From Enterobacteriaceae bacterium entHe1 (lineage in GTDB: Bacteria; Pseudomonadota; Gammaproteobacteria; Enterobacterales; Enterobacteriaceae): DNA of 32,000 nt. The notes beneath the pieces are model-generated. The model saw only the letters and a program-made list of their open reading frames with translations. It did not search any database and was not told where the DNA came from. The stretch spans positions 44,733 to 76,732 of the forward strand of contig JBNIDL010000002.1 in assembly GCA_050108195.1 (NCBI GenBank). The letters run 5' to 3'. Position 1 is the first letter of the stretch. Each line of letters starts with the position of its first letter. This document shows, one piece after another, positions 3,297 through 30,131 of this stretch. A program made the position numbers and the translations under genes.

Positions 3297-3301
3297 ACTT
3301 A

Positions 3302-3967: not shown

Positions 3968-4100
3968 TTGATTTCTCCAAATTTGTTATATAAATTATAA
4001 GAAATATCATAAAAAAAAATAAAATTTAATTAAAGTAAAAATTTTAGTAATATTATTAAATTTAATGATAAAACTATTTTAATAGTAAAAAATAAAAAAA

Positions 4101-6116: not shown

Positions 6117-7591
6117 AAACTATAAATTAAAAATTTATATATTATATAATATATAGAAATAGATATAAAGCTTGATATAGGTATTGTAGAAAGCCAAGCT
6201 TTAATTATATTAGATATTATTTTTTTATTTATTTTGTTTCCATCTGATACTATAGAACCTACTACAGAAGAAGAGACTAGTTGTGTTGTGGAAACTGGCA
6301 ATCCAATATAGTTTGCTATAGCCATTGATAGTGTTACAGAAAATTGAGATTTTATTCCCTGAAATCTAGTTATTCTATTTTTTCCTATTTTTTTGCCAAC
6401 TGTAATTGCAATTCTTTTCCACCCCATCATTGTTCCAAAAGATAAAGAAAAAGCTATAGAATATATAACCCAATTAGGTGAGTATTCCAAAATTTTTTTT
6501 ATTTCTTTTTGTAAATTTTTAAGTTCATTTATTTCATATTTAGAAACATTCTTATTATGCAATAAATACTCAATAAAATTAGAAGTACATATAGATAAAC
6601 GATAGAAAAAAATTTTTACATCTAAACCGTTTTTTCTAAAATATTTAGAAAAATCTTTATTTTTAATAAAATTATTTATATTTTTTTTTAAATTAAATTT
6701 ATTTTTGTAAAATTTGTTTTTTTCTAATAAAAATTCTTTTATCTCTTTATTTTTTTCTACATAACTATCAATATAGCTAAAATATTTTTCGTTATTTACG
6801 TAATCATTAAAAAAATAATTTATAGAATTTCCTACTCTGTTTAAATCATTAGAGCTTATTTTTGAATTTAAAATAAATCTATTAGGAGACATACTCATTA
6901 AAACTAACATCATTATTCCTACACCTTTCTGACCATCATTCATTCCATGAAAGAAACTTATAAATATTGAAGATATTATTAAGCCTAATTTTCCAAAAAT
7001 GTTTATTAAAAAATCTTTTACTATTTTTTTTTTATTTTTTTTAATTCTAAATACTTTAAGACTTAAAAAATTTAAAAAAAAAGTTAAAACTATAGGAATT
7101 AAGGAAGATATTATAGGAAACATTATAAGAGAAATAAAAACTTTAAAAAATTTAATTAAACTAATATTATTATTCAAAGGAATTTTTTCTAAAATAGTTT
7201 TAATTATTCCTACTCCTAATATAGAGCCTATTAATGTATGCGAGCTAGAAGTAGGTAATTTAAAAAACCATGTAAATAAATTCCAAGATATTGATGACAA
7301 CAGTATAGAGAATATAGATAATATTCCATAAACAGAATTTATATTAATAAGGAAATTTATAGAGAAAAGATGTACTATAGAGTAAGCTATAGCTAATCCT
7401 CCAAAAAGAACACCTAATAAGTTAAAAAAACTTGACATTAAAATAGATATTTTTGCATTAAGTGATTTAGTATAAACTAGTATAGAAACTGCGTTTGACG
7501 CATCATGAAACCCATTTATTAATTCATATACAAGTACCAAAATCACAGCTAGTATTAATAAAAATACATTTATGTTGATATCGTTAAACAT
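6113..7591 (-). CDS. pitA: Low-affinity inorganic phosphate transporter (PiT family)
   Basis: 492 aa (E. coli PitA is 499 aa). Both PiT signature repeats are present, INGFHDASNAV and FHGMNDGQKGVG. SSSHTLIGSILG and PVSTTQLVSSSVVG match PitA, and a large central hydrophilic loop is retained. Confidence 0.9.
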   Translation of the reverse strand: MFNDININVFLLILAVILVLVYELINGFHDASNAVSILVYTKSLNAKISILMSSFFNLLGVLFGGLAIAYSIVHLFSINFLININSVYGILSIFSILLSSISWNLFTWFFKLPTSSSHTLIGSILGVGIIKTILEKIPLNNNISLIKFFKVFISLIMFPIISSLIPIVLTFFLNFLSLKVFRIKKNKKKIVKDFLINIFGKLGLIISSIFISFFHGMNDGQKGVGIMMLVLMSMSPNRFILNSKISSNDLNRVGNSINYFFNDYVNNEKYFSYIDSYVEKNKEIKEFLLEKNKFYKNKFNLKKNINNFIKNKDFSKYFRKNGLDVKIFFYRLSICTSNFIEYLLHNKNVSKYEINELKNLQKEIKKILEYSPNWVIYSIAFSLSFGTMMGWKRIAITVGKKIGKNRITRFQGIKSQFSVTLSMAIANYIGLPVSTTQLVSSSVVGSIVSDGNKINKKIISNIIKAWLSTIPISSFISISIYYIIYKFLIYSF

Positions 7592-7741
7592 AGCAATTTT
7601 GTATATATAATTTTTTAAAGTTAAAATAATTTATTTAATAAATTCCTTTATTTTTAAATTATTAAGACTTATAATATTTCATTAAATTTTAATAATATAT
7701 CACATTATTTTAATTAATTTGTTTAAATTTTATAAAAAAAT

Positions 7742-7746
7742 AAGGA
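7742..7746 (+). promoter_or_regulatory. Probable Shine-Dalgarno element for sodA
   Basis: AAGGA lies 7 nt upstream of the sodA ATG at 7754. A G-containing purine block stands out in an otherwise A/T-only spacer. Confidence 0.45.
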
Positions 7747-7753
7747 CTTAAAT

Positions 7754-8383
7754 ATGAAACTGAAATTTCCTTTACTTGATTATAATTATAAAGATTTAGA
7801 ACCTTTTATTGACGAAGAAACTATGTTAATTCATCATCTAAAACATCATAAATCGTATACAGAAAACGCAAAAAATATAATAAATAAAAATAATATAAAA
7901 TTATCTAATTCAGAAATTATAGATTTAGTTAAAAACGAAAAAATAAACAACAAATTAAAAAATAATATAGGTGGTTATATAAACCATAACATATTTTGGA
8001 AATCTTTGAAAAAAGGAACAAAAATTAAACATAAAACTAAAAAAATAATAAAGGATAACTTTTTAAGCTTAGATAATTTTATTAATAATTTCGAAAAAAT
8101 ATCTATAAATCATTTCGGATCAGGTTGGACTTGGTTAGTAAAGGACAAAAAGAATAAATTATTTATATTATCTACAATAAACCAAAACTACCCTAATATT
8201 GTTAAAAATAATAAAAGCAAAAATTTAACTCCTATATTTAATTTAGATCTTTGGGAACATTCTTATTACCTTAACTATAAGAATGACAAAATTAAATATA
8301 TAAAATCATTTTGGAAAATAATAAATTGGAATTTTATAGAAGAGCAAATTTCAAGTATTAACCCATTTTTAGGTTTATATTAA
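7754..8383 (+). CDS. sodA: Superoxide dismutase, Mn type
   Basis: 209 aa. It has the metal-ligand blocks MLIHHLKHHKSY and DLWEHSYYLNYKN, plus FGSGWTWLV. The GG in IGGYINHNIFW and the NQ in STINQNYP are the residues that distinguish Mn-SOD from Fe-SOD (E. coli SodA has NAGGHANH and ANQD). Confidence 0.85.
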   Translation: MKLKFPLLDYNYKDLEPFIDEETMLIHHLKHHKSYTENAKNIINKNNIKLSNSEIIDLVKNEKINNKLKNNIGGYINHNIFWKSLKKGTKIKHKTKKIIKDNFLSLDNFINNFEKISINHFGSGWTWLVKDKKNKLFILSTINQNYPNIVKNNKSKNLTPIFNLDLWEHSYYLNYKNDKIKYIKSFWKIINWNFIEEQISSINPFLGLY

Positions 8384-10293
8384 AATTTTAACATTCTAAA
8401 ATCTGGAGTATTTTTAAAAAGTTTACAATAATTGAGAATTATTTTTATTCTGTAATTTGTTTTACTTTTATCGTTGGAAAAAATTTTGAATTTATTTACG
8501 AAATTTTCTATTAAATTACTAATCTTGAAAATTTCAAATATAATTTTATCGAAATCCATAATTAAAAAAAGAAAAGATACTTTATTTTTACATCTTAGTA
8601 GCTTTTTTAATATACATTCTTCTTCCTTTTTGCAAACATAATTTAGTTCTTTAAATGTTTTTATATTTTTTTTTGTTAACTTAAATATTCTATTTTGTAT
8701 TTTTGATATATATTTTAATTTATGTAAATTTTTTAATTTATTTAGACAATCGATCCAAAATTTATAAATTACTAAATTGAAAAATTTCTTTTCATTTAAA
8801 GAATTTATAATATCTTTTCTAACTTTTAAAGAATAAAAATTTTTTAATCTTTTTAAAATAAAATATAATGTATCATCTATAACATTAGTATTTAATAATC
8901 TGTTCTTATATAATTTTACAGATAAATCTATTATTTCCTTTAAATTTAATAATATTTCTTTATTTAATATAATTCTAATAATTGCAGTAGCAGTCCTTTT
9001 TATAAAATAAGGATCGTTGCTGCCTTTAGGAATATTAAATATCCCAATATGACCAACTATAGTATCAATTTTGTCTGCTATAGATATTATAGAAGAAAAT
9101 GCATTCTTCGGTAATCTATCTTTAATAAATCTTGGATAATGATGTTCTTTTTGAGCTAGCGAAATAAGCTTGTTTTCTTTATTTAATTCAGAATATTTCA
9201 TTCCTATTATTCCTTTCATCTCTGGCATTTCAGCAAATAAATTTGTAGTTATTTCGCATTTAGACATAAGAGATGCTCTAGAAATTAATTTTATATCAAT
9301 TGAATCATTGTAGTAAGAAATTTTTTTAGATAAAATTTTTATTCTTTTTGATTTTTCGAACATAGATCCTAATTTTTTATAAAAAATAACTTTTTTTAAC
9401 AATAATATTCTATCTGAAAATTTTATTTTTTTATCTTCATTAAATAAGTAATTAATGTTAGACAATTTAGAATTTATAGTTGTTTCATTCCAAAAAATAA
9501 CATTATTTAAATTTTTACTTATAGAATTAGTTACTATTAAAAAATAAGGAGATATATTTTTATTTAAATAATATAAAACTATACATTTTTGAATGTCTTG
9601 TATTATAAATTTTATTATAACTTTTGGAAGATTTACAAAATTATTATTTATTATACCAACTTCAATTTTTGGATATTCTACAATTGAAGTTATTTCATTT
9701 ATAAAATTATTTTTAATATCAAAAATCAAATTCATCTTTTTAGAAATTTCTTTAATTTTAGATAAAATAATTCTTTTTCTTTTATTAAAAGAAGCAATAA
9801 CATATCCTTTTTTATATAAAATTAATGGATAATCATTAACATTTCTAACTTTTATTTTTTTTAAAGAAGACAAATGACCAAAAGTAAAATTATTGCTTTT
9901 TAATCCAAAATTTTTATATTTAAATATTTTATCATTAAACAATAATAAAATGTTAAAAACTGGTCTTACAAAACTAAAATTTTCTTCACCCCAATTCATA
10001 CTTTCATATTTAGAAATAAAGATTAAAATATTATCAATTATTTTAATCAAATCTTTTTTTAACGAAGAATTAACATTTATATTAGTTTTTGTGTTATTTT
10101 TATTATTTAAATATCTTATATTAATAGTTTTTACAGAAAGTCTTCTTGAAGAAGCAAACCAATATATTTTTTCATAAACTATTTTGAATATAGCATAATA
10201 TCTTATAAATTCTTTAAAAAATTTTTTTCCAAAAAAAAACAGCCTTTTTTGTGGTAACTCTTCAGTAATTATTTCTATTAAAAAATTTATCAT
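8380..10293 (-). CDS. glyS: Glycine--tRNA ligase beta subunit
   Basis: 637 aa (E. coli has 689). The N-terminus FLIEIITEELPQK matches GlyS FLVEIGTEELPPK. It lies immediately downstream of glyQ in the conserved glyQS operon arrangement. The sequence is highly diverged and Lys/Ile/Asn-rich. Confidence 0.85.
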   Translation of the reverse strand: MINFLIEIITEELPQKRLFFFGKKFFKEFIRYYAIFKIVYEKIYWFASSRRLSVKTINIRYLNNKNNTKTNINVNSSLKKDLIKIIDNILIFISKYESMNWGEENFSFVRPVFNILLLFNDKIFKYKNFGLKSNNFTFGHLSSLKKIKVRNVNDYPLILYKKGYVIASFNKRKRIILSKIKEISKKMNLIFDIKNNFINEITSIVEYPKIEVGIINNNFVNLPKVIIKFIIQDIQKCIVLYYLNKNISPYFLIVTNSISKNLNNVIFWNETTINSKLSNINYLFNEDKKIKFSDRILLLKKVIFYKKLGSMFEKSKRIKILSKKISYYNDSIDIKLISRASLMSKCEITTNLFAEMPEMKGIIGMKYSELNKENKLISLAQKEHHYPRFIKDRLPKNAFSSIISIADKIDTIVGHIGIFNIPKGSNDPYFIKRTATAIIRIILNKEILLNLKEIIDLSVKLYKNRLLNTNVIDDTLYFILKRLKNFYSLKVRKDIINSLNEKKFFNLVIYKFWIDCLNKLKNLHKLKYISKIQNRIFKLTKKNIKTFKELNYVCKKEEECILKKLLRCKNKVSFLFLIMDFDKIIFEIFKISNLIENFVNKFKIFSNDKSKTNYRIKIILNYCKLFKNTPDFRMLKF

Positions 10294-10315
10294 AAATTTA
10301 ATTTTTATATAAATA

Positions 10316-11197
10316 TTATAATTTATTAATATATATTTTTGTAATTTTTGTAATTAAATCTTTAATAACTAAAATATATCTTTTTTTTTCCATGTCAGAA
10401 ATTAATTTCCTTGCGTTTATTAAGTTAAAATTGTGTATAGCCTGTATTAAATATTCATACGCAGAAAAAAACAAATCTTTATTTAAATAAATCATTTTTT
10501 TTGCAATTTTTATCTGTTTGTTTAAACAATAAAAAACGAAATAATTATCTAAATCTATTAAATTATAAATAAAATTACTAAACTCAAAATCATAAAATAT
10601 ATTTTTATATTTTATTAAATTATTTTTTTTACAAATGTCCCACCTTATATTAAAAATATTTTTTTTTTTTTGTAATAACATAGACATTCTTTCCAACCCA
10701 TAAGTTATTTCTATAATTACAGGATTACAATTAATACCAGCTAACTGTTGAAAATAAGTTAATTGAGTTACTTCTAATCCATTTATTCTTACTTCCCATC
10801 CAGTTCCCCAAGCCCCCAATGTCGGATTTTCCCAATTATCCTCTAAAAATTGTATATCGTTTTCATAAGTATTAAATCCTATAAACTTAAGAGAATTTAA
10901 ATATAAATTTTGTAAATTTTTAGGTGAAGGTTTAATTATTACCTGAAATTGATAATAATGTTGTAATTTAGTCGAAAAATTAAAATTTATTCCATCTGCA
11001 GGTCGTCTTGAAGGTTGAACATAAAACAAAGATATTTTTTTTTTTTTTAAAGGATACATACATGTAATAGGATGAGAAGTGCCTGCTCCGACTTTCATGT
11101 CGAAAGATTGAAAACTAAAACAATTTCTTGATTTCCAAAAATCACTTAAATCTTTAATTAAAGACTGAAACGTAAACTTATTTTTAATTTTTAACAT
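10316..11197 (-). CDS. glyQ: Glycine--tRNA ligase alpha subunit
   Basis: 293 aa. Strong blocks include DMKVGAGTSHP, YVQPSRRPADG, LQHYYQFQVIIKPSP, EDNWENPTLGAWGTGWEV..NG.EVTQ.TYFQQ and EITYGLER. Confidence 0.95.
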   Translation of the reverse strand: MLKIKNKFTFQSLIKDLSDFWKSRNCFSFQSFDMKVGAGTSHPITCMYPLKKKKISLFYVQPSRRPADGINFNFSTKLQHYYQFQVIIKPSPKNLQNLYLNSLKFIGFNTYENDIQFLEDNWENPTLGAWGTGWEVRINGLEVTQLTYFQQLAGINCNPVIIEITYGLERMSMLLQKKKNIFNIRWDICKKNNLIKYKNIFYDFEFSNFIYNLIDLDNYFVFYCLNKQIKIAKKMIYLNKDLFFSAYEYLIQAIHNFNLINARKLISDMEKKRYILVIKDLITKITKIYINKL

Positions 11198-11217
11198 TTT
11201 TTACTAACTTAAATTTA

Positions 11218-13653
<2,436 letters not shown>

Positions 13654-13704
13654 TTAAAAAAAATAAATAGTTAAATGATAACATTATTTTTTAAAATTTA
13701 AAAA

Positions 13705-15078
13705 TTATTTACCTATGCAAAATTCAGAAAAAATTTTTTCTAATAGATCTTCATTTCTACGTTTTCCAATTAATTCTTCTAAAGAATTGCAAGCTAAAGA
13801 AATTTCTTCAGCAAAAAGTTCGAAGTTATTATATTTGTTTAATTGATTTTCACTATTTACCAAATGATCTAAACAGCTTTTTAATAAATCTATTTGTCTT
13901 TTTTTATACAATCCAACACTTTCAGTCCTTCTTCTATAGTTAACTTTTATTTTTTTCAATAAACAAGAAATTAAAATTTTTATACCATAATTGTATTTAG
14001 CAGAAATATCCACAACATCACATTCCTTTAAACTAAAATTTTTTGGTTTGCTTCCAGTCATATCTATTTTATTTCTTACTAATATCAAATTTTTTTTAAT
14101 GAATTTTTTACTTAAAATAAAATTTAAATTTAGAAAATTTAAAGATTTTTCTTTGCTACTATCAATTACTAAAAAAATATAATTAGCTTTTTTGATTTGT
14201 TCAAATGTTCTTTTAATGCCTATTTTTTCTACTTTGTTTTTTATATTATCTCTAATACCTGCAGTGTCTATAAAAGATATTAAAAAATTATCAATAATAA
14301 CTTCTTTAATTAAAAAATCTCTAGTAGTTCCAGGAATGCCTGTAACTATTGATAAATTCGAATTGGTTAAAGAATTAAATAAACTAGATTTTCCAGAATT
14401 AGTTTTTCCAACGATTACAACTTTTATTCCATTTGTTATATTTCTATTTATTTTAGATTTTTTATATATATTTTTTATTTTATTTATTAAAAATGTCAAT
14501 TTATTGTAAATTTTATTTTTATTAAAAATGTCGATATCATTTTCAAAAAAATTAATATTAGCTTCCGTTATAACTCTAATTTTATAAATATAATCAATTA
14601 AATTACTTATAATACCTGAAGATATACCAATCATTGAATTTATTGATACATTAAGCATTTTTCTAGAACTAGAGTTAATTATATCTATTATAGATTCTGC
14701 TTGTAAAAGATTTATTTTTTTATTTAAAAAAGCTCTTTTTGAAAATTCACCTGGGTAAGCAATTCTAACATTGTTAAATTTTATTATATAACTTAAAATA
14801 GTATTTAGTATTATAGGATTACCATGACAATTTAATTCTAATACATCTTCTCCAGTGAAAGAATTTGGTTTTTTATAAAATATTGCAATTCCTTTATCTA
14901 TTATTTTATCTTTTATATAAAAATTTAAATAACTAGCTTTTTTATTTTTTGGTATTTTCTTTAACAAAAGGTAAGAAAGTTTAGAAGTTAAATCCCCAGA
15001 TATTCTTATTATACCAACACTGCTGTAACCTAAAGGCGTTATTATAGCTGTTATAGTATCTTTTTCCATAAAATTCAT
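13705..15078 (-). CDS. mnmE: tRNA modification GTPase MnmE (TrmE/ThdF)
   Basis: 457 aa. It has the N-terminus DTITAIITP...GIIRISG, the G domain GKTNSGKSSLFN, TRD and DTAG, and the diagnostic C-terminal CIGK. The ATG at 15078 overlaps the yidC TGA (ATGA). An in-frame ATG at 15069 is an alternative start. Confidence 0.93.
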   Translation of the reverse strand: MNFMEKDTITAIITPLGYSSVGIIRISGDLTSKLSYLLLKKIPKNKKASYLNFYIKDKIIDKGIAIFYKKPNSFTGEDVLELNCHGNPIILNTILSYIIKFNNVRIAYPGEFSKRAFLNKKINLLQAESIIDIINSSSRKMLNVSINSMIGISSGIISNLIDYIYKIRVITEANINFFENDIDIFNKNKIYNKLTFLINKIKNIYKKSKINRNITNGIKVVIVGKTNSGKSSLFNSLTNSNLSIVTGIPGTTRDFLIKEVIIDNFLISFIDTAGIRDNIKNKVEKIGIKRTFEQIKKANYIFLVIDSSKEKSLNFLNLNFILSKKFIKKNLILVRNKIDMTGSKPKNFSLKECDVVDISAKYNYGIKILISCLLKKIKVNYRRRTESVGLYKKRQIDLLKSCLDHLVNSENQLNKYNNFELFAEEISLACNSLEELIGKRRNEDLLEKIFSEFCIGK

Positions 15079-16661
15079 TTTTCTTTTTTATTAATTAGCA
15101 AACTTAATATAACTTTTTGTTGAAAAATAGTAAAAACATTATTTATTACATAATATAGAACTAATCCTGACGGGAGCCATAAAAAAAATATTGTAAAAAT
15201 GAAAGGTACAATTTTAGAAAATAAATTTTGGTAATTATCATTATGATCAATATTATCATTAGACATAACTTGTAGAACAAAGGTTGTTAAAGTCATTAAT
15301 ATAGGCAATATAAAATAATTGTCAGGTTCAGATAAATCTTTTATCCAAAACATAAAAGGAGAGTGCCTTAACTCTACAGAATTAGATAAAACATTATATA
15401 AAGAAAAGAATATTGGCATTTGCAAAAAAACAGATAAACAACCACTAAATGGATTTATTTTATTGAGTTTATAAAGCTTTATAATTTCTTCATTTTGTTT
15501 ATTTTTATCATTAAAAAATTTATTTTTAATAATTGATATTTCAGGTTGTAAATTTTTTATTTTAATCATCGACTCATATTGAGATTTTACTATAGGATAA
15601 ATTACAATTCTTATTAAAATTGTAAAGAAAATTATAGAAATACCCCAATTTTTAAAAAATTTATTTAATATTTTTAATACTTCAAAAGAAGGATACGAAA
15701 TGAACCAAAAAAATCCGTAATCTATAAGTAATTCCAAACTTTTATCTTCGTTAATTAACTGTTCTCTTATTTTTGGACCAGCCCATATGTTTGTAGATAT
15801 TTTATTAATTTTGTTTGGAAATAAGTTAAAATAACTTGAATTAAATTTAACTGTTATTATATTATTATCTTTTTTAAAACAGATATTGTTAAAATAATTA
15901 TCTAATGATAAGAAAGAAATTAAAAAATATTTTTGTAAAAGAGTTATCCATTTATAATAATTATCTTTTATTAAAATATTTTTATTAATACTTTTTATAT
16001 TGTATTTTTTGTAGTTATTTCCCTTAGAATATAAAGCTATATCTTTGTAATTATTATCTTCATGAAAATCTAGTCTATTTTTTATATTTACGGAAAAATA
16101 AGACTTTAGTGGTAATCTGGAATAATTAAAAATGTCATAAGTTATTTTAATTAAGTAACTATTTTTTTTCAATATAAAATTTTTTACATACGTTATTTGA
16201 GGTGAATTATATTTATATATAGAAACCTTTAATTCTTTTTCATTTTCTTTAAGAAAGAAAAAATTTTTATTATCTTTTGTTTTAAATGAATTAATATTTT
16301 CATTATTAGACAATTTTTCATTAATTACATTTAAATTTTGTTCAAGTTCATAATCTGAATTTTTTGAATCACTTAAAATATTTAGTAACTTATAAGAATT
16401 TAATCTTTCTAAAAATTTAGTTAAATAAATTTTTTTTATATTTCCGTCTTTTAAACTTATTTTAATAATTAATAAATCATTTTTTATTATTATGTTATTG
16501 TCATCATGATTATTACACGTATATTCATTTAAAATGTTATTTTTTAAATTATTTACATTATTATTTTTTGCAAAAAATAAATCTTTAAAAAATAAAAATT
16601 TAAAAACTAAAAAAAATGAACAAGATAATATGAATATCAAAAAATATTTATAAATATTCAT
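15075..16661 (-). CDS. yidC: Membrane protein insertase YidC
   Basis: 528 aa (E. coli has 548). An N-terminal TM segment is followed by a long diverged periplasmic P1 domain and then the conserved core, NWGISIIFFTILIR....P and GCLSVFLQMPIFFSLY. It sits in the conserved rpmH-rnpA-yidD-yidC-mnmE order. Confidence 0.92.
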   Translation of the reverse strand: MNIYKYFLIFILSCSFFLVFKFLFFKDLFFAKNNNVNNLKNNILNEYTCNNHDDNNIIIKNDLLIIKISLKDGNIKKIYLTKFLERLNSYKLLNILSDSKNSDYELEQNLNVINEKLSNNENINSFKTKDNKNFFFLKENEKELKVSIYKYNSPQITYVKNFILKKNSYLIKITYDIFNYSRLPLKSYFSVNIKNRLDFHEDNNYKDIALYSKGNNYKKYNIKSINKNILIKDNYYKWITLLQKYFLISFLSLDNYFNNICFKKDNNIITVKFNSSYFNLFPNKINKISTNIWAGPKIREQLINEDKSLELLIDYGFFWFISYPSFEVLKILNKFFKNWGISIIFFTILIRIVIYPIVKSQYESMIKIKNLQPEISIIKNKFFNDKNKQNEEIIKLYKLNKINPFSGCLSVFLQMPIFFSLYNVLSNSVELRHSPFMFWIKDLSEPDNYFILPILMTLTTFVLQVMSNDNIDHNDNYQNLFSKIVPFIFTIFFLWLPSGLVLYYVINNVFTIFQQKVILSLLINKKEK

Positions 16662-16677
16662 TTGTCAACCGATATAA

Positions 16678-16887
16678 TTAAAATTTCTTAGTTAAAACAT
16701 TACATTTTAATAGTCTTTTTAATGTATAAAAAAAACCAAAAAATATTCCATGTTTATTTATTACATTTATAGAATAATTTGAACAAGTTATAGAATACCT
16801 ACATTTTTTTCTTAAAACTAAATTAAATAAAATTTGATAAATTTTAATAAAAATTATTAGAACTTTTCTTATCATAAAAAAATTCAC
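16678..16887 (-). CDS. yidD: Membrane protein insertion efficiency factor YidD
   Basis: 69 aa as tracked. It has the YidD signature IKIYQ.......KCRYSITCSNYS......HG.......T.KRLLKCN. The codon at 16887 is GTG, so the ATG at 16875 (MIRKVL...) is an equally plausible true start. It overlaps the 3' end of rnpA. Confidence 0.8.
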   Translation of the reverse strand: MNFFMIRKVLIIFIKIYQILFNLVLRKKCRYSITCSNYSINVINKHGIFFGFFYTLKRLLKCNVLTKKF

Positions 16888-17227
16888 TAAAAATAAAATT
16901 TATTTCTTTTCTAATTATAATCTTACTTAAATAAGTAATATTAAAATTAACAATTAATAAAAAATCTAGATTAATAAGTTTGTGTTGATTTAACCTAAAA
17001 GATTCTTTGATTATCCTTTTTATTTGGTTTCTTTTATAAGAAAACTTTATTTTTTTTTTAGGTATAATAAACGATATTCTAGAATAATTTAAATTATTTT
17101 TATGACAAAAAAGTAAAAAATATTTATAAAAAAATTTTTTTTTAAAAAATTTCAAAGATTTTTTGTTTAAATTAATTATTTTTCCATTTAATCCAAATTT
17201 TTTCCCCTTATAAATTTTATTTAACAT
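16844..17227 (-). CDS. rnpA: Ribonuclease P protein component
   Basis: 127 aa and very basic. It has the RNR-type motif in [14 protein letters not shown]. It lies directly downstream of rpmH and upstream of yidD/yidC. Confidence 0.85.
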
Positions 17228-17354
17228 TTATTTTAAATTTTTTTTTTATTCTTTTTCTTTTAAAAATTTTTCTACCGTTTTTAGTTTTCATTCTTGTACG
17301 AAATCCATGTTTTTTATTTCTTTTTTTTAAAGATGGTTGAAATGTCCTTTTCAT
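17217..17354 (-). CDS. rpmH: 50S ribosomal protein L34
   Basis: Absent from the ORF track because it is too short. Hand translation from the ATG at 17354..17352 to the TAA at 17219..17217 gives [45 protein letters not shown] (45 aa). Compare E. coli L34, [38 protein letters not shown]. Its last 11 nt overlap the rnpA start. Confidence 0.92.
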
Positions 17355-17479
17355 AGAAATCTTTAGCCTTTCATAAATACTTATTTAATTATTTTGATAA
17401 TATTTTATTTATAAAAAATTATATACTAAATTAATTTAATATAAATAAAATATTTAAAAATATATAAAATAAAATAAAT

Positions 17480-18580
17480 ATGAAATTAATAATAAAAAAT
17501 GAGGTTTTGTTAAACCTACTAAAAAAAACCATTCATACAGGATTTACTAACACAAACAACAAAATATTAAATTACTTAATTTTTAAAGTAAAAAATAATA
17601 AGCTTTTTATTTTAAGCAGTAATCTAGAAGTAGAAATGATGGTTTCAGTAGACTTAAAGGAATTTAATAAAGATGGAAAAAGTGCAATTTTAGCAAAAAA
17701 AATTATATATATATGTAGAAATTTTCCAAAGAATTCTAATATACTGATAAAATCAGATACTAATAAAGTATTAGTATATTCTAAAAACATGCGTTATTCG
17801 TTAAATACAATGGAGGTTGACGATTTTCCTAGAATAAAATTTGAAAACAAATACTATAAATATTCAATTTCAGAGAAATTTTTAAAAAAAGCAATAAATT
17901 TATTAAAATTTGTTGCTCCAGATAATGACGTACGTAATTATTTAAATGGAATTTTAATAGAAAAGATAAATAATATATTATATATCACAGCAACTGATGG
18001 TCATAGATTAGCTACATATAAAATATTAACTGATTGTTTAAATAATATAAATTCCATAATAATTCCAAAAAAAACTGTTATAGAAATACAATATTTACTA
18101 GAAAAAGATAAAGAAGTTAATTTATTAATATCTAATAAATTTATAAAATTAAAAATAAGAAATTATTACATAACATCTAAATTAATAAATGGCAAATTCC
18201 CTAATTATCATCATCTTTTGAACAAAAAATATAAAAAAAACATAAAAATTGAATCTAATTCTTTTAGAAATTCTTTAAGCAGAATATCTATATTAGTTGA
18301 CGATAAGCTAAGATTAATAAAAATAAAAATAAAAAAAAATAAACTAAAAATTACTACTAATAATTCTATTCAAGAAAAAGCAGAAGAAATAATAAAAATA
18401 AAAAATAAAAAAAATTTTTCTATAGAAATAGGAGTAAATATAGATTACATATTAGATATAGTAAATGTTTTAAAATGCAAAAAAATAAAATTTTCTTTTA
18501 ATGATAACATTTCGAGTCTAAAAATAGAAAACATGGAAAATAAAAACATATGCTATATATTAATGCCAATAATGATCTAA
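17480..18580 (+). CDS. dnaN: DNA polymerase III beta sliding clamp
   Basis: 366 aa, the same length as E. coli DnaN. Matching blocks include DVRNYLNGIL.E, TATDGHRLA, IIPKKTV.E, TSKLINGKFPNY, LKITTNN..QEKAEE, IG.N..Y.LD..N.LKC and the C-terminal MPIMI (E. coli has MPMRL). Confidence 0.93.
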   Translation: MKLIIKNEVLLNLLKKTIHTGFTNTNNKILNYLIFKVKNNKLFILSSNLEVEMMVSVDLKEFNKDGKSAILAKKIIYICRNFPKNSNILIKSDTNKVLVYSKNMRYSLNTMEVDDFPRIKFENKYYKYSISEKFLKKAINLLKFVAPDNDVRNYLNGILIEKINNILYITATDGHRLATYKILTDCLNNINSIIIPKKTVIEIQYLLEKDKEVNLLISNKFIKLKIRNYYITSKLINGKFPNYHHLLNKKYKKNIKIESNSFRNSLSRISILVDDKLRLIKIKIKKNKLKITTNNSIQEKAEEIIKIKNKKNFSIEIGVNIDYILDIVNVLKCKKIKFSFNDNISSLKIENMENKNICYILMPIMI

Positions 18581-18585
18581 TAATA

Positions 18586-20400
18586 CTAACTAACTGTTAC
18601 TGATTTAGCTAAATTTCTTGGATGATCTAAGTCTATTTTCTTGTAAACAGCCATATAATAAGATAAAAGTTGCATAGGAATCACATACAATATAGGAGAT
18701 ACAATATCTCCCAAGTCAGGTAATAAAAAATGTTTTACATTTTTAAATTTATTTACATCAGAAAATAAATATACTAATCCATTTCTAGACAAGATTTGCT
18801 CTAAACTTAAACTAACAACGTTCTTTAACTGTTTTTTAGTAGCTAAAGCTATTACAGGTATATTTTTATCTATAAGAGATAAAACGCCGTGTTTTAGTTC
18901 TCCAGCAAAACAAGACTCTGCATGAATATAAGATATTTCTTTTATTTTTAAAGCAGCTTCCATTGCTATAGGATATAATTTTCCAGTACCTATAATAATT
19001 AAGTTTTTTACGTTAAATAAACAAAAAGATAACTTTTTAATATTTTTTTTTAAATTTAAAATATTTTTTATAATACTAGGTAGTTTATACAAAATTTTTA
19101 TTATTTTTTTTTCTAGTTTACAAGAGCTATTAATATATAATGATAAAAGTAATAAAACTATTAATTGTACGGTAAAAGTTTTAGTAGAAGCAACACTTAT
19201 TTCAATTCCAGCTTTAGTAATTAAAGAAATATCAGACTCTCTAACTAATGTAGAATAATAAGTATTACACACAGATAATATACACAAATATTTAAGCTTT
19301 TTAGATTTTCTTAAAACAGACAATATGTCTGCAGTTTCTCCAGACTGAGAAATAAGAATTAACATAGTATTAGATTTAACTATAGGCATTTTATTCTTAA
19401 ATTCAGAAGCTATTTCTACATTACATTGTAGTTTAGATATTTCTTCAAACCAATATTTTGATACAAGTGCAGAATGATAAGAACTACCACAAGCAACTAT
19501 ACTAATATGACTTACATTTTTAAAAATTAATTCTATATTTTTATTTAATTTAGAAAAATCAACTAAATTGTTTTTACAAAAATGATTTAAAGTGTTCTCT
19601 ATCGATTTTGGTTGATCAAATATTTCTTTCTCCATATAATATTTGTAAGGATATTTAGTAATATAACTACTAAAAGATTTTAATTTATTTTCTTTCCTAT
19701 TTATTAACATTCCAAATTTGTTCCATATTCTTACAGAAGAAGAAGTTATTTCGGAAACGTCTCCTTGTTTTAAATAAATAACTTTTTTAGTAAAAGAAGA
19801 AATAACCATAGGATCTGAAGAAAAAAAATTTTCTTTATTACTAAGACCTACAACAATAGGACTACCCAAATTAGCTGCAACTAGTACTTTTGGATTATAT
19901 TCATCCATAACCACAATACTATAAATACCCTTCAGCTTTTTTATTGCTGAATTTACTATTTCGTACAAATTTCTGTTTTTATTTTTTTTATACTCTAAAT
20001 TTATTAAATGAGCTATTATTTCTGTATCAGTATCACTAAAAAATTTATAGTTGTCATTTATCAACTTTTTTTTTATTTCTAGATAATTATCTATTGTACC
20101 ATTATGTACTACTGCTATATTTTCAGATATATGAGGATGAGCATTTTTTTCTGTAGGATTTCCATGGCTAGCCCATCTTGTATGAGCTATACCTATTTTG
20201 CCTTCAAAAGGATTCATAAAAAATATTTTTTTTAAATTTTTTACTCTTCCAACACACCTTAGTCTTTTTATTTTTTTATTTAAACTATTAATTATAGCGA
20301 TTCCAGAAGAATCATAACCTCTATACTCTAAAAAATTTAATATAGATAATAACAATTTTGATATCTCTCTTTTAGAATTAACAGCAATTATGCCACACAT
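18586..20400 (-). CDS. glmS: Glutamine--fructose-6-phosphate aminotransferase (isomerizing)
   Basis: The ORF track begins at 20403, but that codon is TTG. The next codon is ATG followed by Cys (MCGIIAV), and GlmS needs Cys as the mature N-terminal nucleophile, so I start it at 20400 (604 aa). The SIS domains include SQSGETADIL, and the C-terminus is RNLAKSVTVS. Confidence 0.93.
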   Translation of the reverse strand: MCGIIAVNSKREISKLLLSILNFLEYRGYDSSGIAIINSLNKKIKRLRCVGRVKNLKKIFFMNPFEGKIGIAHTRWASHGNPTEKNAHPHISENIAVVHNGTIDNYLEIKKKLINDNYKFFSDTDTEIIAHLINLEYKKNKNRNLYEIVNSAIKKLKGIYSIVVMDEYNPKVLVAANLGSPIVVGLSNKENFFSSDPMVISSFTKKVIYLKQGDVSEITSSSVRIWNKFGMLINRKENKLKSFSSYITKYPYKYYMEKEIFDQPKSIENTLNHFCKNNLVDFSKLNKNIELIFKNVSHISIVACGSSYHSALVSKYWFEEISKLQCNVEIASEFKNKMPIVKSNTMLILISQSGETADILSVLRKSKKLKYLCILSVCNTYYSTLVRESDISLITKAGIEISVASTKTFTVQLIVLLLLSLYINSSCKLEKKIIKILYKLPSIIKNILNLKKNIKKLSFCLFNVKNLIIIGTGKLYPIAMEAALKIKEISYIHAESCFAGELKHGVLSLIDKNIPVIALATKKQLKNVVSLSLEQILSRNGLVYLFSDVNKFKNVKHFLLPDLGDIVSPILYVIPMQLLSYYMAVYKKIDLDHPRNLAKSVTVS

Positions 20401-20406
20401 CAAGCA

Positions 20407-20434: not shown

Positions 20435-21808
20435 CTATTTTTTTACCCTTTTCCAATTTTTAATAGAAAATTGCTTTACACGACTTATAGTTAACCCGTT
20501 CGATAAAACATTCTTTGTAATTGTACTACCAGCTCCAATTGTAGCATCTTTTGTTATTCTTAATGGAGCTATAATTTGTGTATCTGCGCCTATAAAAACA
20601 TTATCACCTATAATTGTTTTATGTTTGTACATACCATCATAATTACATACAATAACACCTGCACCTATGTTAACTTTTTTACCTACCTCTGAATCACCTA
20701 AATAACTTAAATGTTTAGCTTTAGAGAAATCACCAAAGCTAGTATTTTTTATTTCTACAAAAGAACCTATTTTTGTATTTTTTTTTATTTTACTTTTTAA
20801 TATTACAGCAAAAGGTCCAATTTTAGAATTTGACATTATTTTAGTATTTTTTATGTAAGAATATGGATAAATAGTAACATTATCTTCTATATGCACGTTT
20901 TCTAAAATAGAACCATTTTTTATTTTTACGTTATTTCCTAAAAAAATTTTACCTTTTAACACAACATCAGGTTCTATTGTTAGATCTTTACCATGAGTGA
21001 CATCACCATATATTTCTATTCTACTAACATTATAAATATTAACACCAGAAGACAACAATTTAATTATTTTATTTTTTCTTATAATTTTTTCTACAACAAA
21101 AAGTTGTAATTTATTATTTATATTGATTATTTCACTTTTGTTTCTTACCATTAAAGACGTAACTTTAATATCTTTTTTATAAGCATAGTTTAAAATTTTA
21201 GTTATATAAATTTCTTTAGTTTTTTTATCTTTTTTAATTTTTTTTATTAAGTAAATCAAAATTTTTTTATTTATAAAAAAAATACCAGAATTAACTTCCT
21301 TTATTTTTAAATATTTATCAGAAGTTATATTACTTTCTTCTATTATTTTTATTATCTTTTCATTTTTTCTAATTATTCTTCCATATCCGGTGGGATTTTT
21401 TAAAAAAGCTGTAACTATAGTAAAATTTCTTTTTAGTTTATACTTTTTAATTAAATTTTTAATAGTTTTCTTTTTAATTAAAGGCATATCTCCAAGCAAT
21501 ATTAATAAATGTTTATCCTTATACGCATAAGGAATAACTTGCTTTATTGCATCTCCTGTTCCAAGTGGAAACTTTTGTAATATCCATTTTACTTTAATGC
21601 CATGTAAATTAAGTGAATTTTTAATATTTTCACAATCACTATTATAAACTATATAAACATTATCAGTCTTTATTTTTTTTAAGGTGTTTAAAATATATTG
21701 AATCATAGGTTTCCCATAAACAGGAAAAAACGATTTAGGGATACTTGTTAACATTCTTTTACCTTTCCCTGCAGCTAAAATTACAATACTAAATTTAAAA
21801 ATAGACAT
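20435..21808 (-). CDS. glmU: Bifunctional GlcNAc-1-phosphate uridyltransferase / glucosamine-1-phosphate acetyltransferase
   Basis: 457 aa. It has the N-terminal nucleotidyltransferase motif ILAAGKGKRM and LGTGDA. The C-terminal left-handed beta-helix hexapeptide repeats include IGDNVFIGADTQIIAP and ATIGAGSTITKNV. It lies upstream of glmS, as in enterobacteria. Confidence 0.93.
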   Translation of the reverse strand: MSIFKFSIVILAAGKGKRMLTSIPKSFFPVYGKPMIQYILNTLKKIKTDNVYIVYNSDCENIKNSLNLHGIKVKWILQKFPLGTGDAIKQVIPYAYKDKHLLILLGDMPLIKKKTIKNLIKKYKLKRNFTIVTAFLKNPTGYGRIIRKNEKIIKIIEESNITSDKYLKIKEVNSGIFFINKKILIYLIKKIKKDKKTKEIYITKILNYAYKKDIKVTSLMVRNKSEIININNKLQLFVVEKIIRKNKIIKLLSSGVNIYNVSRIEIYGDVTHGKDLTIEPDVVLKGKIFLGNNVKIKNGSILENVHIEDNVTIYPYSYIKNTKIMSNSKIGPFAVILKSKIKKNTKIGSFVEIKNTSFGDFSKAKHLSYLGDSEVGKKVNIGAGVIVCNYDGMYKHKTIIGDNVFIGADTQIIAPLRITKDATIGAGSTITKNVLSNGLTISRVKQFSIKNWKRVKK

Positions 21809-21841: not shown

Positions 21842-24310
<2,469 letters not shown>

Positions 24311-24321
24311 GAAATCTATAT

Positions 24322-25866
24322 TTAATTAAATATATGTTTTTTATTTAAAACAAAACTACTTATTACTTTTTTTATTTTATTTTTTAAATCTGATACTAAA
24401 AAACTAGAAGTTTCAATAGTTTTCATTAAACTAAAAAAATTCTTTTTAAAATGTTCAATTAGTTTAAATTCAAATAATTTAATTTTTTTAAAATCTACAT
24501 ATTTTACATAATTATATTTTATTACAAAAAAAATAATTATTTCTTCTGAGATTGACATCGGAAAATTTTTTCTTTGTTTTAATAATTCAATTATTTTTTT
24601 TCCGTAATTTATTTTATTTATTGTTGCTTTATCTAATTCTGAAGAAAATTGAGAAAACGAAGATAATTCATAATATTGAGATAAAATCATCTTAATTTTC
24701 TTAGAAAAATGTTTCATTATTTCCGTTTGAGCTGATGATCCAATTCTAGAAACTGATATTCCAATATTTATTGCTGGTCTTATTCCTGAATTAAAGAGAT
24801 TAGATTCTAAAAATATTTGTCCATCAGTGATAGAAATAACATTAGTTGGAATAAAAGAAGATACATCTCCTAATTGAGTTTCTATTATTGGTATGGCAGT
24901 AAGAGAACCTGATTTATTTTTTATTTTACCAAAAGTTTTTTCTTTTACATAATATTTATTTACACAAGCAGATCTTTCTAATAATTTAGAATGTAAAAAA
25001 AATATATCTCCAGGATAAGCTTCTCTTCCTGGTGGTTTTTCAAGAAGTAAAGAAATTTGTCTATAAGCTATTGCATGTTTAGATAAATCATCATATATAA
25101 TTAAAGCATCTTCTCCATTATTCATAAAAAATTCTCCTAAGCTACATCCATAGTAAGGAGATAAATATTGAAGAGAAGCTGAATCGGAAGCACTCGCTAA
25201 AACAACTACTGTATAATTTAAAGAATTATTTTTAATTAAAGTTTGCACTATATTTAAGACAGTAGAAGATTTTTGACCAATCGCTACATATATACACTTT
25301 ACATTTTTATTTCTTTGATTCATTATTATATCTAAAGCTATTGTTGTTTTTCCAGTTTGCCTATCTCCAACAATTAACTCTCTTTGACCTTTTCCTATAG
25401 GTATCATAGAATCTATAAATTTATAACCGGTATATAAAGGTCTATTTATTGATGATCTTTCAATAATACTAGGAGAAGATTTATCTAATAAATAAAATTC
25501 GTCACTTTTTATATCTCCTTTTCCGTCTATAGGCACACCTATACCATTTACAACTCTTCCTAGAAAATTTTTTCCTACAGGAAGTTCAAGAAGTTTACCT
25601 GTTCTTTTTACTTTCATTCCTTCTTTAACTATATTATATTTACCTATTATTATAGCGCTAACTGTATCTCTTTTTAGGCATTGAACAATTGCTTTTATGT
25701 TTTCGTTTATTATAATTACTTCTCCAAACATTACATTATAAATTCCATAAACTTTTATTACCCCATCTTTTATGGAGATAACAACACCTTCTTCATAAAT
25801 TATATTTTTGTCTTTATAACTTAGGATTTTTTCTTTTATTACTTTGCTAAATTCAAATAAATTCAT
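24322..25866 (-). CDS. atpA: F1 ATP synthase alpha subunit
   Basis: 514 aa. It has Walker A GDRQTGKTTIALD, plus YDDLSKHAIAYRQISLLL.KPPGREAYPGD.F.LHS.LLER and ITDGQIFLES.LFN.GIRPAIN.G.SVSR. Confidence 0.97.
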   Translation of the reverse strand: MNLFEFSKVIKEKILSYKDKNIIYEEGVVISIKDGVIKVYGIYNVMFGEVIIINENIKAIVQCLKRDTVSAIIIGKYNIVKEGMKVKRTGKLLELPVGKNFLGRVVNGIGVPIDGKGDIKSDEFYLLDKSSPSIIERSSINRPLYTGYKFIDSMIPIGKGQRELIVGDRQTGKTTIALDIIMNQRNKNVKCIYVAIGQKSSTVLNIVQTLIKNNSLNYTVVVLASASDSASLQYLSPYYGCSLGEFFMNNGEDALIIYDDLSKHAIAYRQISLLLEKPPGREAYPGDIFFLHSKLLERSACVNKYYVKEKTFGKIKNKSGSLTAIPIIETQLGDVSSFIPTNVISITDGQIFLESNLFNSGIRPAINIGISVSRIGSSAQTEIMKHFSKKIKMILSQYYELSSFSQFSSELDKATINKINYGKKIIELLKQRKNFPMSISEEIIIFFVIKYNYVKYVDFKKIKLFEFKLIEHFKKNFFSLMKTIETSSFLVSDLKNKIKKVISSFVLNKKHIFN

Positions 25867-25870
25867 TTAT

Positions 25871-26413
25871 TTAAAGCTTACTCATGAAATTTTTAATATT
25901 GTATATTCTACTTTTTATACTATTATTTATTGTAATATTTTTAAATTTTATTATAAATCCCGATATTATACTTTTATTTATAGATAATTTAATTTTTGGC
26001 TTAAAATTAAATTTATTTTTAATAAATTTACATATTTTTTTTAATTGCGATCTATTCATATAACAAGAAGAAATAATTTTTACTTTTTTAATATTTTTAT
26101 ATTTATTATCAATTTTTACAAAATAATTAAATATAGAAGGAAAAATACAAAAATGTTCGTACTTAAGAGTTATTTTAATTAAATTTAAAAAAAAATCATC
26201 TGCAATATTAGAAAGTTCTTTTATTAAAAAATTATTTAATTTTTTATATTTAATATTTTTACTACTAAACAAAAATTCAGAATTTTTTATTTTTGCAATA
26301 TAAGATAATAAAATTAAAATTTTATAATAAAAAAAAGTTTTCTTTTTTTTTTTTAAAATACTAAATATACATTTAGCATAGATTTTAGATATATAATTTT
26401 CATTTTTTATCAT
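25871..26413 (-). CDS. atpH: F1 ATP synthase delta subunit
   Basis: 180 aa (E. coli has 177), in the conserved position between atpF and atpA. The N-terminal I...YAK..F and C-terminal I.GF.IK.....I..S.K..I are delta-like. The rest is weakly conserved, so the call rests largely on synteny and size. Confidence 0.75.
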   Translation of the reverse strand: MIKNENYISKIYAKCIFSILKKKKKTFFYYKILILLSYIAKIKNSEFLFSSKNIKYKKLNNFLIKELSNIADDFFLNLIKITLKYEHFCIFPSIFNYFVKIDNKYKNIKKVKIISSCYMNRSQLKKICKFIKNKFNFKPKIKLSINKSIISGFIIKFKNITINNSIKSRIYNIKNFMSKL

Positions 26414-26890
26414 TTATAATTTTTTAATAATTTTATCTATTATCTTTTTATTTAAATATTTATCTCTTTTTAAGGAAATATTTATTATTTTTTCCAATAT
26501 ATTCATAACCAAATCTACCATCTGTATTTTAAAGTTTTTATATATTTCTTTTTTTTCTATCTTTATTTTTTCTTTAGCCATTTTTATTATATTTTTGTAA
26601 TCTTTTTTAGCCTGTAAGTTGGCGTCTGATATTATTTTATCTTTTTCTTTTTCTGCCAAACATAATATGTTCTTTGCTTTATTTTCAGTTTTTTTTAGTA
26701 AATTTTTATATTTATTTTTATATTTTTTTAAGTAAATTTTTGCATTTTTATACATTAATTTTGTACATAATATATCTTTTTTTCTTTTTTCTATTATTTT
26801 AATGAAATGCGGTATTATAAATCTTTTATAAAAAAACAAAAATAAAAAAAAAGAAAACATTTGTACAAATATAGTAAAATTTATTTTCAT
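26414..26890 (-). CDS. atpF: Fo ATP synthase subunit b
   Basis: 158 aa (E. coli has 156). A single N-terminal hydrophobic segment is followed by a long, highly charged predicted helix. It lies between atpE and atpH, and its stop abuts the atpH start with no spacer. Confidence 0.8.
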   Translation of the reverse strand: MKINFTIFVQMFSFFLFLFFYKRFIIPHFIKIIEKRKKDILCTKLMYKNAKIYLKKYKNKYKNLLKKTENKAKNILCLAEKEKDKIISDANLQAKKDYKNIIKMAKEKIKIEKKEIYKNFKIQMVDLVMNILEKIINISLKRDKYLNKKIIDKIIKKL

Positions 26891-26901
26891 TTTATTTTTA
26901 A

Positions 26902-27138
26902 TTATTTAGAAAAAATAAGATATAAACTTATACCTACAGCTATCATTGGTATAGCATCAATCAGCCCAATAATTATAAAAAATTGTGTTCTTAATATTGG
27001 TATTAAATCAGGTTGCCTAGAAGCGTTATTTAAAAATTTACTTCCTAGAAAACTTATACTTATTGTAGCACTAATTACAGATATGCTTATCATTATAGCT
27101 GCAATTAAATAAGATAAATCATAATTAAAGTTATTCAT
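26902..27138 (-). CDS. atpE: Fo ATP synthase subunit c
   Basis: 78 aa. [35 protein letters not shown] is nearly identical to E. coli subunit c, including the polar loop RQP and the proton-carrying Asp in the (L/I)DAIPM block. Confidence 0.95.
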
Positions 27139-27146
27139 TATTTGAA

Positions 27147-27150
27147 CCTC
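27147..27150 (-). promoter_or_regulatory. Probable Shine-Dalgarno element for atpE
   Basis: The reverse complement reads GAGG, 8 nt upstream of the atpE ATG at 27138, within the 48-bp atpB-atpE spacer. Confidence 0.4.
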
Positions 27151-27186
27151 ACTAAAAAAAAGTATTTTAAATAAATTTTAATCTAT

Positions 27187-27990
27187 TTAATCTTCAATAG
27201 ATACTGATATATAAACTATAGTAAGTATCATAAATATAAAAGATTGAAGTAAAATTATAGGCATATGAAAGATAGATAACAAAAATATTAATAACCATTG
27301 TATACAAATTGGAGCTAAAGATGTAGTAATAAGTAAAATTAGTTCGCATGAATATATATTTCCAAACAATCTTAATCCTAATGAAATAACCTTAGATATA
27401 TGTTCAATTAATTCAAGTATTAAATTAAAAGGAATCATAAAGAAAAAGTTAAATGGGTGAAAAAATAATTTTTTCATGAAAATACCAAAGCCTCTATTTT
27501 TTATCTTATAATATATTAAGATAATTAGAACACTTAAACTCATAGCCAATGTAATATTTATATCAGCAGTTGGAATTATATGTAAATTATTTATTCCAAT
27601 CAGATTACTTGTTATGTATAAAACAACATCATGAGGCAATAAGCTAATAGAATTCATACAAAATATCCAAACAAAATTCAAAAAAGAAATAGATGATATA
27701 AAAATACTATTTTTTTTTATTGAACTATATATTTGTTTATTTATAAAAACTAAAATTATTTCTATAAATATTTGAAAATTTTCTGGCGAGTAAACAGATA
27801 ATTTTTTACACTTAATATGTAAAAAAAAAGTTAAAAGACAAATTACAAAAAAAGAAGAAAATAAAGAATCAACATTTAACATCCAAAAACGACTATTTTT
27901 TACGCATTTTAAAAAAACCAAATTTTTTAAATCTAATTGTAAATGACATAAATGATTGTAAATATAATCTTTTATACTAATATATTTCAT
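27187..27990 (-). CDS. atpB: Fo ATP synthase subunit a
   Basis: 267 aa (E. coli has 271) and multi-pass hydrophobic. The essential Arg region ISLGLRLFGNIYSCELI matches E. coli LGLRLFGNMYAGELI. It is the first gene of the atp operon here. Confidence 0.92.
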   Translation of the reverse strand: MKYISIKDYIYNHLCHLQLDLKNLVFLKCVKNSRFWMLNVDSLFSSFFVICLLTFFLHIKCKKLSVYSPENFQIFIEIILVFINKQIYSSIKKNSIFISSISFLNFVWIFCMNSISLLPHDVVLYITSNLIGINNLHIIPTADINITLAMSLSVLIILIYYKIKNRGFGIFMKKLFFHPFNFFFMIPFNLILELIEHISKVISLGLRLFGNIYSCELILLITTSLAPICIQWLLIFLLSIFHMPIILLQSFIFMILTIVYISVSIED

Positions 27991-28079
27991 GAATTGTAAA
28001 ATCTTTCATCTAATAAAAATTAGTAAATTTAATTTATTTTATATATTATTATTAAAATTTAAGTTAGTAAATAATTTAA

Positions 28080-29945: not shown

Positions 29946-30131
29946 ATTTATTAGTTTGAATTACTTAAAGTTATTATCAGAATTTTAAAGAAAAGCTTAT
30001 TTAAGCTTAAAATTTTTAATCAATAATTTTAATAAAAATTCGATTTTGTTCCTTAATTAGTTTAGTTTATTATAATAATTATAACTATGTAAAACTAAAA
30101 TTAAATATATTTAAAGAATATATAAAAAATA

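Follow-up and report, generated by a model that had tools for sequence, protein, structure and literature searches.

The window analyzed here, by which we mean the whole 32-kb stretch of DNA, has a GC content of 20.9%, is 95.7% coding, and contains no sizeable ORF that NCBIfam and Pfam models left without a name (Table 1); an Rfam search of the same 32 kb found no RNA family. The feature on which our analysis is centered is the interval between rpmH and dnaN, two genes that are transcribed divergently from a spacer of only 125 bp. On the left of this spacer, rpmH heads a string of genes, rpmH-rnpA-yidD-yidC-mnmE, whose order is that of Escherichia coli. On its right lies an intact dnaN, in which the three domains PF00712, PF02767 and PF02768 were all found and whose product is identical to the NCBI protein MGD6858737.1; it has no dnaA upstream and is the sole plus-strand gene between 8.4 and 29.9 kb. 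The first-pass annotation had placed the rpmH start at 17354 and the dnaN start at 17480, and both placements hold: the rpmH product covers positions 1-43 of its profile and residue 1 of E. coli DnaN aligns at 17480, which confirms the limits of the 125-bp spacer (17355-17479).

Table 1. Features of the 32-kb window (+, forward strand; -, reverse strand;., intergenic)
Feature	Coordinates	Strand	Basis or remark
rpoH	409-1275	-	NCBIfam/Pfam
rsmD	1356-1934	+	NCBIfam/Pfam
gor	1923-3296	-	NCBIfam/Pfam
marC	3302-3967	-	NCBIfam/Pfam
prlC	4101-6116	+	NCBIfam/Pfam
pitA	6113-7591	-	NCBIfam/Pfam
sodA	7754-8383	+	NCBIfam/Pfam
glyS	8380-10293	-	NCBIfam/Pfam
glyQ	10316-11197	-	NCBIfam/Pfam
gyrB	11218-13632	-	NF011501, 1104.6 bits; inverted block stands between gyrB and dnaN
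mnmE-gyrB spacer, 72 bp, one inversion breakpoint	13633-13704	.	ORF map, E. coli order
mnmE	13705-15078	-	NCBIfam
yidC	15075-16661	-	NCBIfam
yidD	16678-16887	-	NCBIfam
rnpA	16844-17227	-	NCBIfam
rpmH (ribosomal protein L34)	17217-17354	-	TIGR01030, 62.9 bits vs cutoff 37.65, residues 1-43
rpmH-dnaN spacer, 125 bp, 7.2% GC, empty dnaA slot	17355-17479	.	
dnaN (beta sliding clamp)	17480-18580	+	TIGR00663, 253 bits, residues 1-364
gap between convergent dnaN and glmS stops, 5 bp	18581-18585	.	ORF coordinates
glmS	18586-20403	-	NCBIfam/Pfam
glmU	20435-21808	-	NCBIfam/Pfam
atpC-D-G-A-H-F-E-B	21842-27990	-	NCBIfam/Pfam
mnmG	28080-29945	-	NCBIfam/Pfam
mnmG-kup spacer, 186 bp, 12.4% GC	29946-30131	.	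E. coli map
kup	30132-32000	+	NCBIfam/Pfam

One gene of the atp operon deserves separate mention. The atpC ORF (21842-22084) begins with a GTG codon and specifies only 80 aa, as against 139 aa in E. coli, and its product matches the N-terminal beta-sandwich domain only weakly (PF02823, E = 0.006). The epsilon subunit thus appears to have lost its regulatory C-terminal helical domain; NCBI nonetheless annotates a protein here.

The rpmH-dnaN spacer is the place where dnaA would ordinarily lie, and nothing resembling dnaA was recovered from it. Although described at first pass as consisting of A and T only, it contains nine G or C residues in 125 (7.2%), an ordinary value for the intergenic DNA of the window, which ranges from 0 to 31% GC. 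It has no ORF of at least 20 aa. A tblastn search of the 32-kb window with eight diverse DnaA proteins gave no similarity (best E = 0.3), a profile built from 120 DnaAs and run against all six-frame segments of the window reached at best E = 3.6, and E. coli DnaA and RecF matched nothing in the 32 kb at E <= 1, in a search in which E. coli DnaN, the positive control, was matched at 4e-62. The initial observation that the spacer harbors neither an ORF nor a remnant of dnaA is therefore upheld by the ORF scan, tblastn and the profile alike. Without composition correction and SEG filtering, tblastn did return DnaA "matches" at E of about 1e-7, but these lie inside prlC, glyS, atpG, yidC and dnaN, show 20-26% identity and disappear under default statistics, which marks them as compositional, from K/N/I-rich proteins. 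The spacer is also free of DnaA boxes at up to one mismatch. Presumably, the divergent promoters of the rpmH operon and of dnaN lie in it, along with their 5' leaders. Promoter-like hexamers can be found in it at 17394-17422 on the plus strand and at 17445-17418 on the minus strand; such sites are fewer in the region than in shuffled sequence (19 as compared with 24.2) and so carry no weight. Repeats in this spacer and in the one between mnmG and kup were likewise set aside as low-information A/T matches, among which no iteron-like family was seen.

On the other side of dnaN, its end (18580) and the glmS ORF (18586) converge with 5 bp between them, just as the first reading of the ORF coordinates had it. 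This leaves no place for recF, the absence of which from the locus was likewise noted early and is confirmed: E. coli RecF as a query found no similarity within the 32-kb window, and the gene is missing from both of its possible resting places, namely 13633-13704 and 18581-18585. No intrinsic-terminator-like structure was found in 16600-18700 and, with the two stops only 5 bp apart, the dnaN and glmS transcripts would overlap as antisense.

The extent of the departure from the ancestral state becomes clear from the gene order of E. coli MG1655, which runs gyrB-recF-dnaN-dnaA (-), rpmH-rnpA-yidD-yidC-mnmE (+) and onward through glmS-glmU-atpC..I-rsmG-mnmG (-) and oriC to mioC-asnC-asnA-viaA-ravA and kup (+). 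As a control set we used 80 gyrB loci of free-living gammaproteobacteria (Pseudoalteromonas, Ferrimonas and Shewanella; GyrB 52-54% identical), 79 of which present the order dnaA-dnaN-recF-gyrB, 75 with rpmH upstream on the minus strand and four with rpmH lost to a contig end. Together with MG1655, they bear out the canonical gammaproteobacterial arrangement assumed by the first-pass annotation, and the empty slot is accordingly a real departure from the norm and not a matter of chance. Whereas the canonical cluster has dnaA, dnaN, recF and gyrB contiguous, co-oriented and divergent from rpmH, the rpmH-dnaN adjacency is all that survives of it here. Collinearity with E. coli extends over kup, mnmG, the atp operon and glmUS. 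The block dnaN-[dnaA]-rpmH-rnpA-yidD-yidC-mnmE (13633-18585), by contrast, is inverted relative to E. coli, as a consequence of which mnmE and gyrB have become neighbors, 72 bp apart; this inversion, which placed gyrB beyond the rpmH operon, was missed at first pass. Further, about 23 kb of the E. coli interval between glmS and mnmE (the pst..tna block) is absent, the mioC-ravA block is gone from the mnmG-kup interval, and rsmG (gidB) and atpI are missing, with 89 bp left between atpB and mnmG (27991-28079).

The same collinearity identifies the mnmG-kup spacer as the positional equivalent of the E. coli interval oriC-mioC-asnC-asnA-viaA-ravA, which puts the ancestral oriC slot on the same contig as the empty dnaA slot, at a distance of 12.5 kb. 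The sequence TTATCCACA has 0 matches in this spacer (29946-30131) at up to two mismatches, as against three in E. coli oriC, the control, at up to one mismatch. In the entire 32 kb there are two copies of the consensus DnaA box TTWTNCACA, both inside genes, as against 3.96 expected; the putative origin beside mnmG thus has no functional cluster of DnaA boxes. The raw GC-skew curve follows gene orientation and was for that reason dropped as evidence for an origin and replaced by third-position skew split by gene strand. Left of 29.9 kb the plus-strand GC3 skew is -0.20 for minus-strand genes and -0.07 for plus-strand genes; to the right it is +0.20 in kup, the single gene (90 G/C third positions) from which that side is measured. 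The skew hence changes sign at mnmG-kup independently of gene orientation, as expected at an origin, which makes the spacer a candidate replication origin and, when combined with the lack of DnaA boxes there, a start near mnmG without DnaA probable. If the origin does lie there, then dnaN is transcribed head-on to replication.

The window is identical in sequence to part of an NCBI metagenome-assembled genome (MAG). To place the source of this DNA, we compared its GyrB with 5.8 billion protein clusters. Among the best 120 matches, the closest non-self proteins were those of Ca. Mikella endobia (57%) and Ca. Gullanella endobia (56%), and all those of Enterobacterales fell at 54-57%, with free-living members at 54-55%; the best non-self identity of DnaN was 36%. 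Neither Wigglesworthia nor Blochmannia, both of which had been put forward at first pass as possible sources, featured among these 120 GyrB matches and, with GyrB identities to other proteins not exceeding 57%, the DNA belongs to neither. Judged from its sequence, the source is a very long-branched and deeply divergent lineage of Enterobacterales with a strongly reduced genome of 21% GC. The window is AT-rich and gene-dense, it has lost repair and accessory genes and atpC is truncated, such that every local hallmark of an obligate endosymbiont, and one resembling those of insects, seems to be present.

Nearly all other bacteria possess DnaA, and it is essential to them. Its loss was first reported for Wigglesworthia, and that genome is a close parallel: Wigglesworthia glossinidia of tsetse, like the MAG studied here, has an AT-rich, reduced enterobacterial genome without dnaA in its slot. 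Its putative origin was placed upstream of gidA (mnmG), in AT-rich sequence that lacks diagnostic DnaA boxes (PMC3280448), and the mnmG-adjacent spacer of the MAG is box-free too. The genome-wide absence of dnaA from Wigglesworthia is proven from closed genomes, whereas for the MAG it is inferred only. The genome of Wigglesworthia morsitans, in which the assigned origin region matches that of W. brevipalpis, reportedly lacks a clear skew; in the MAG, unlike in that genome, the GC3 skew does change sign at mnmG. Most lineages of Blochmannia lost dnaA in parallel; B. turneri retains an intact copy, and that of B. obliquus is a pseudogene (PMC4389277). GC skew puts the predicted origin of Blochmannia beside mnmG, and DnaA boxes are few or lacking (PMC4389277). 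Our database search adds an intact DnaA in the Blochmannia strain of Colobopsis nipponica (P0327). These carpenter-ant symbionts thus display all stages of dnaA loss; the MAG, which belongs to a different genus, displays the end state only. The view taken at first pass, that such losses are confined to a few textbook cases, is too narrow, for dnaA has also been lost in Baumannia, Blattabacterium, Carsonella and Sulcia (PMC4389277), and two further junctions without dnaA emerged from our comparisons.

The first of these is in Ca. Dasytiphilus stammeri (locus L084, Logan run SRR27811437), where, as in the MAG, dnaA and recF are missing and rpmH (-) is separated by 178 bp (9823-10000) from dnaN-gyrB (+); nothing similar to DnaA or RecF was found in the 21 kb of this locus. 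As dnaA goes unmentioned in the main text of the Dasytiphilus genome paper (PMC11191362), the loss may be unreported so far. The second, from a symbiont in Logan run SRR32162528 (locus L085), has rpmH (-), a gap of 695 bp (7761-8455), dnaN, a gap of 444 bp (9557-10000) and gyrB. Neither gap contains a called gene or any similarity to DnaA or RecF, and the deletion here is possibly more recent than that in the window. Both differ from the MAG in having kept dnaN and gyrB adjacent, without an inversion, and in being less AT-rich (27% GC over the locus for the former and 24% for the latter). Their GyrB proteins are 53-57% identical to that of the MAG, which is no closer than that of E. coli, and the GyrBs of the three dnaA-less loci are 53-63% identical among themselves, as compared with 54-71% to E. 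coli. Since their identities to one another do not exceed those to E. coli, the three loci probably represent independent losses, subject to the usual caveat on long branches. Buchnera aphidicola BCc from Cinara cedri provides the converse case: like the MAG, it has a very AT-rich locus (20.3% GC) with the same rpmH/dnaN/gyrB/mnmE neighborhood but, unlike the MAG, its 416-kb genome retains a 437-aa DnaA between rpmH and dnaN. Hence, extreme AT bias and genome reduction alone do not predict the loss.

The arrangement could in principle be an assembly artefact, with a chimeric or collapsed rpmH-dnaN or dnaN-glmS junction concealing a dnaA and/or recF that is actually present. Two Logan contigs of SRR31123095, from a second assembly of the same run, match the window from 1881 to 18339 and from 19802 to 32034 with 0 mismatches, and one of them continues from rpmH through the spacer into dnaN, which means that two assemblers agree on this junction. 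They break off within dnaN and within glmS, and for the segment 18340-19801, which takes in the dnaN-glmS junction, the MAG assembly is the sole support, a point in favor of an artefact at that end. Against it, apart from the agreement of two assemblies over the rpmH-dnaN junction, count the full length of rpmH and dnaN, with starts as in their homologues, and the recurrence of the same type of junction in independent genomes. Further, the NCBI protein accessions are consecutive from gyrB (ending in 731) through dnaN (MGD6858737.1) to atpD (ending in 741) and so account for exactly the genes seen, with no spare CDS between rpmH and dnaN. We consider an artefact very improbable. The spacer might alternatively be what is left of a recently pseudogenized dnaA, as in Blochmannia obliquus; such pseudogenes do occur in related systems (PMC4389277), and the longer 695-bp gap at the same junction in the SRR32162528 symbiont would fit a course of that kind. 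However, 125 bp can hold less than a tenth of a 1.3-kb gene, no DnaA similarity at E <= 1 is seen with default scoring, the matches that appear with filters off are compositional and confined to other genes, and even the 695 bp of that symbiont are without DnaA similarity. For the window, an eroded remnant is effectively refuted.

The alternative with the most substance, already allowed for at first pass, is that dnaA was relocated rather than lost and that an intact copy lies on another contig. The locus is demonstrably rearranged, as the inverted dnaN..mnmE block attests, the assembly is incomplete (the contig at hand is 78,757 bp long), gyrB of Ca. Mikella endobia is likewise in a non-canonical context, and a very divergent DnaA could escape searches. 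The DnaA of Buchnera BCc, whose GC content is likewise 20%, served as the query in such searches: neither the best 120 matches from 5.8 billion clusters nor the best 150 from 1.84 billion 50% representatives (down to 285 bits) included a DnaA attributable to the MAG or to run SRR31123095; we estimate the sensitivity of these searches at roughly one half, as a copy would go unnoticed if its score fell short of about 285 bits or if it had been absorbed into a different 50% cluster. When all DnaA matches were ranked by amino-acid bias, the 20 most AT-biased came from Buchnera, Ca. Purcelliella, Ca. Legionella polyplacis or environmental MAGs. Tracing covered the three most AT-biased DnaAs known only from Logan: two (P0251 and P0366) derive from different runs and have the canonical rpmH|dnaA-dnaN surroundings, and the third (P0249) shares 67% identity with a DnaA of Buchnera. 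Relocation is also at odds with the lack of DnaA boxes in the ancestral oriC slot and the rpmH-dnaN spacer and of any excess of them in the 32 kb. Moreover, dnaA is directly upstream of dnaN in every DnaA-bearing locus examined, and rpmH is on its other side wherever the locus reaches that far (L087, L088, L093 and 75 of the 80 gammaproteobacterial loci). The exceptions concern only that far side, with no rpmH called in the rnpA-dnaA gap of L089 and ubiA preceding dnaA in L092. Weighing these points, we regard relocation as unlikely and the absence of dnaA from the whole genome as quite likely yet unproven, on account of the limited sensitivity of the searches and the fragmentation of the MAG.

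We therefore favor outright loss, and propose as a single explanation, probable when taken as a whole, that reductive evolution deleted dnaA cleanly from the rpmH-dnaN interval, removed recF, rsmG, atpI, the mioC-ravA block and the approximately 23 kb between mnmE and glmS, and inverted dnaN..mnmE. The rpmH-dnaN spacer would now supply promoters leftwards to the rpmH operon and rightwards to dnaN. The genome is most probably dnaA-less, as are Wigglesworthia, most Blochmannia and Baumannia, and its replication would then start without DnaA, in all probability still close to mnmG. As to how, our best guess is that an extremely AT-rich origin might be opened by transcription or an R-loop, and that the helicase might be loaded through the restart pathway, with a timing that is possibly under host control. 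Control of symbiont replication by the host is the favored idea in the literature, with no mechanism demonstrated (PMC8611330, PMC7198777), and both the manner in which replication starts in dnaA-less symbionts and the part played by the host have been an open question since 2002 (PMC3280448, PMC8611330, PMC7198777).

Thus, the locus is a new example of the known dnaA-less obligate endosymbionts and not a new phenomenon. That dnaA was lost here independently, in a case not reported before and in a novel, deep-branching lineage of enterobacterial symbionts whose origin was kept on the mnmG side even though the initiator and all DnaA boxes had gone, is a proposition that we hold to be evenly balanced. 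If true, then together with Dasytiphilus and the SRR32162528 symbiont it would make dnaA loss a common convergent end-point in mid-sized symbiont genomes (about 0.4-0.7 Mb), and would provide enough independent cases for a comparative search for a replacement of DnaA. One further dnaA-less genome does not by itself settle how replication starts; each independent loss is a replicate for comparing the replication, restart and recombination genes that are always kept, and the features of the origin. The skew that apparently still switches at the old origin suggests, in addition, that the position of an origin can outlive its initiator.

Finally, our searches brought up a set of shortened DnaA proteins in other symbionts. 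Several DnaAs of Buchnera (342-344 aa, and 242-323 aa in those named "DnaA/Hda family") are without roughly the first 100 residues, corresponding to domains I-II, and the same is true of the DnaA of Ca. Purcelliella (344 aa). These proteins (P0245-P0247, P0378, P0380 and P0424) could represent either an intermediate stage in the erosion of DnaA or an issue of start-codon annotation.
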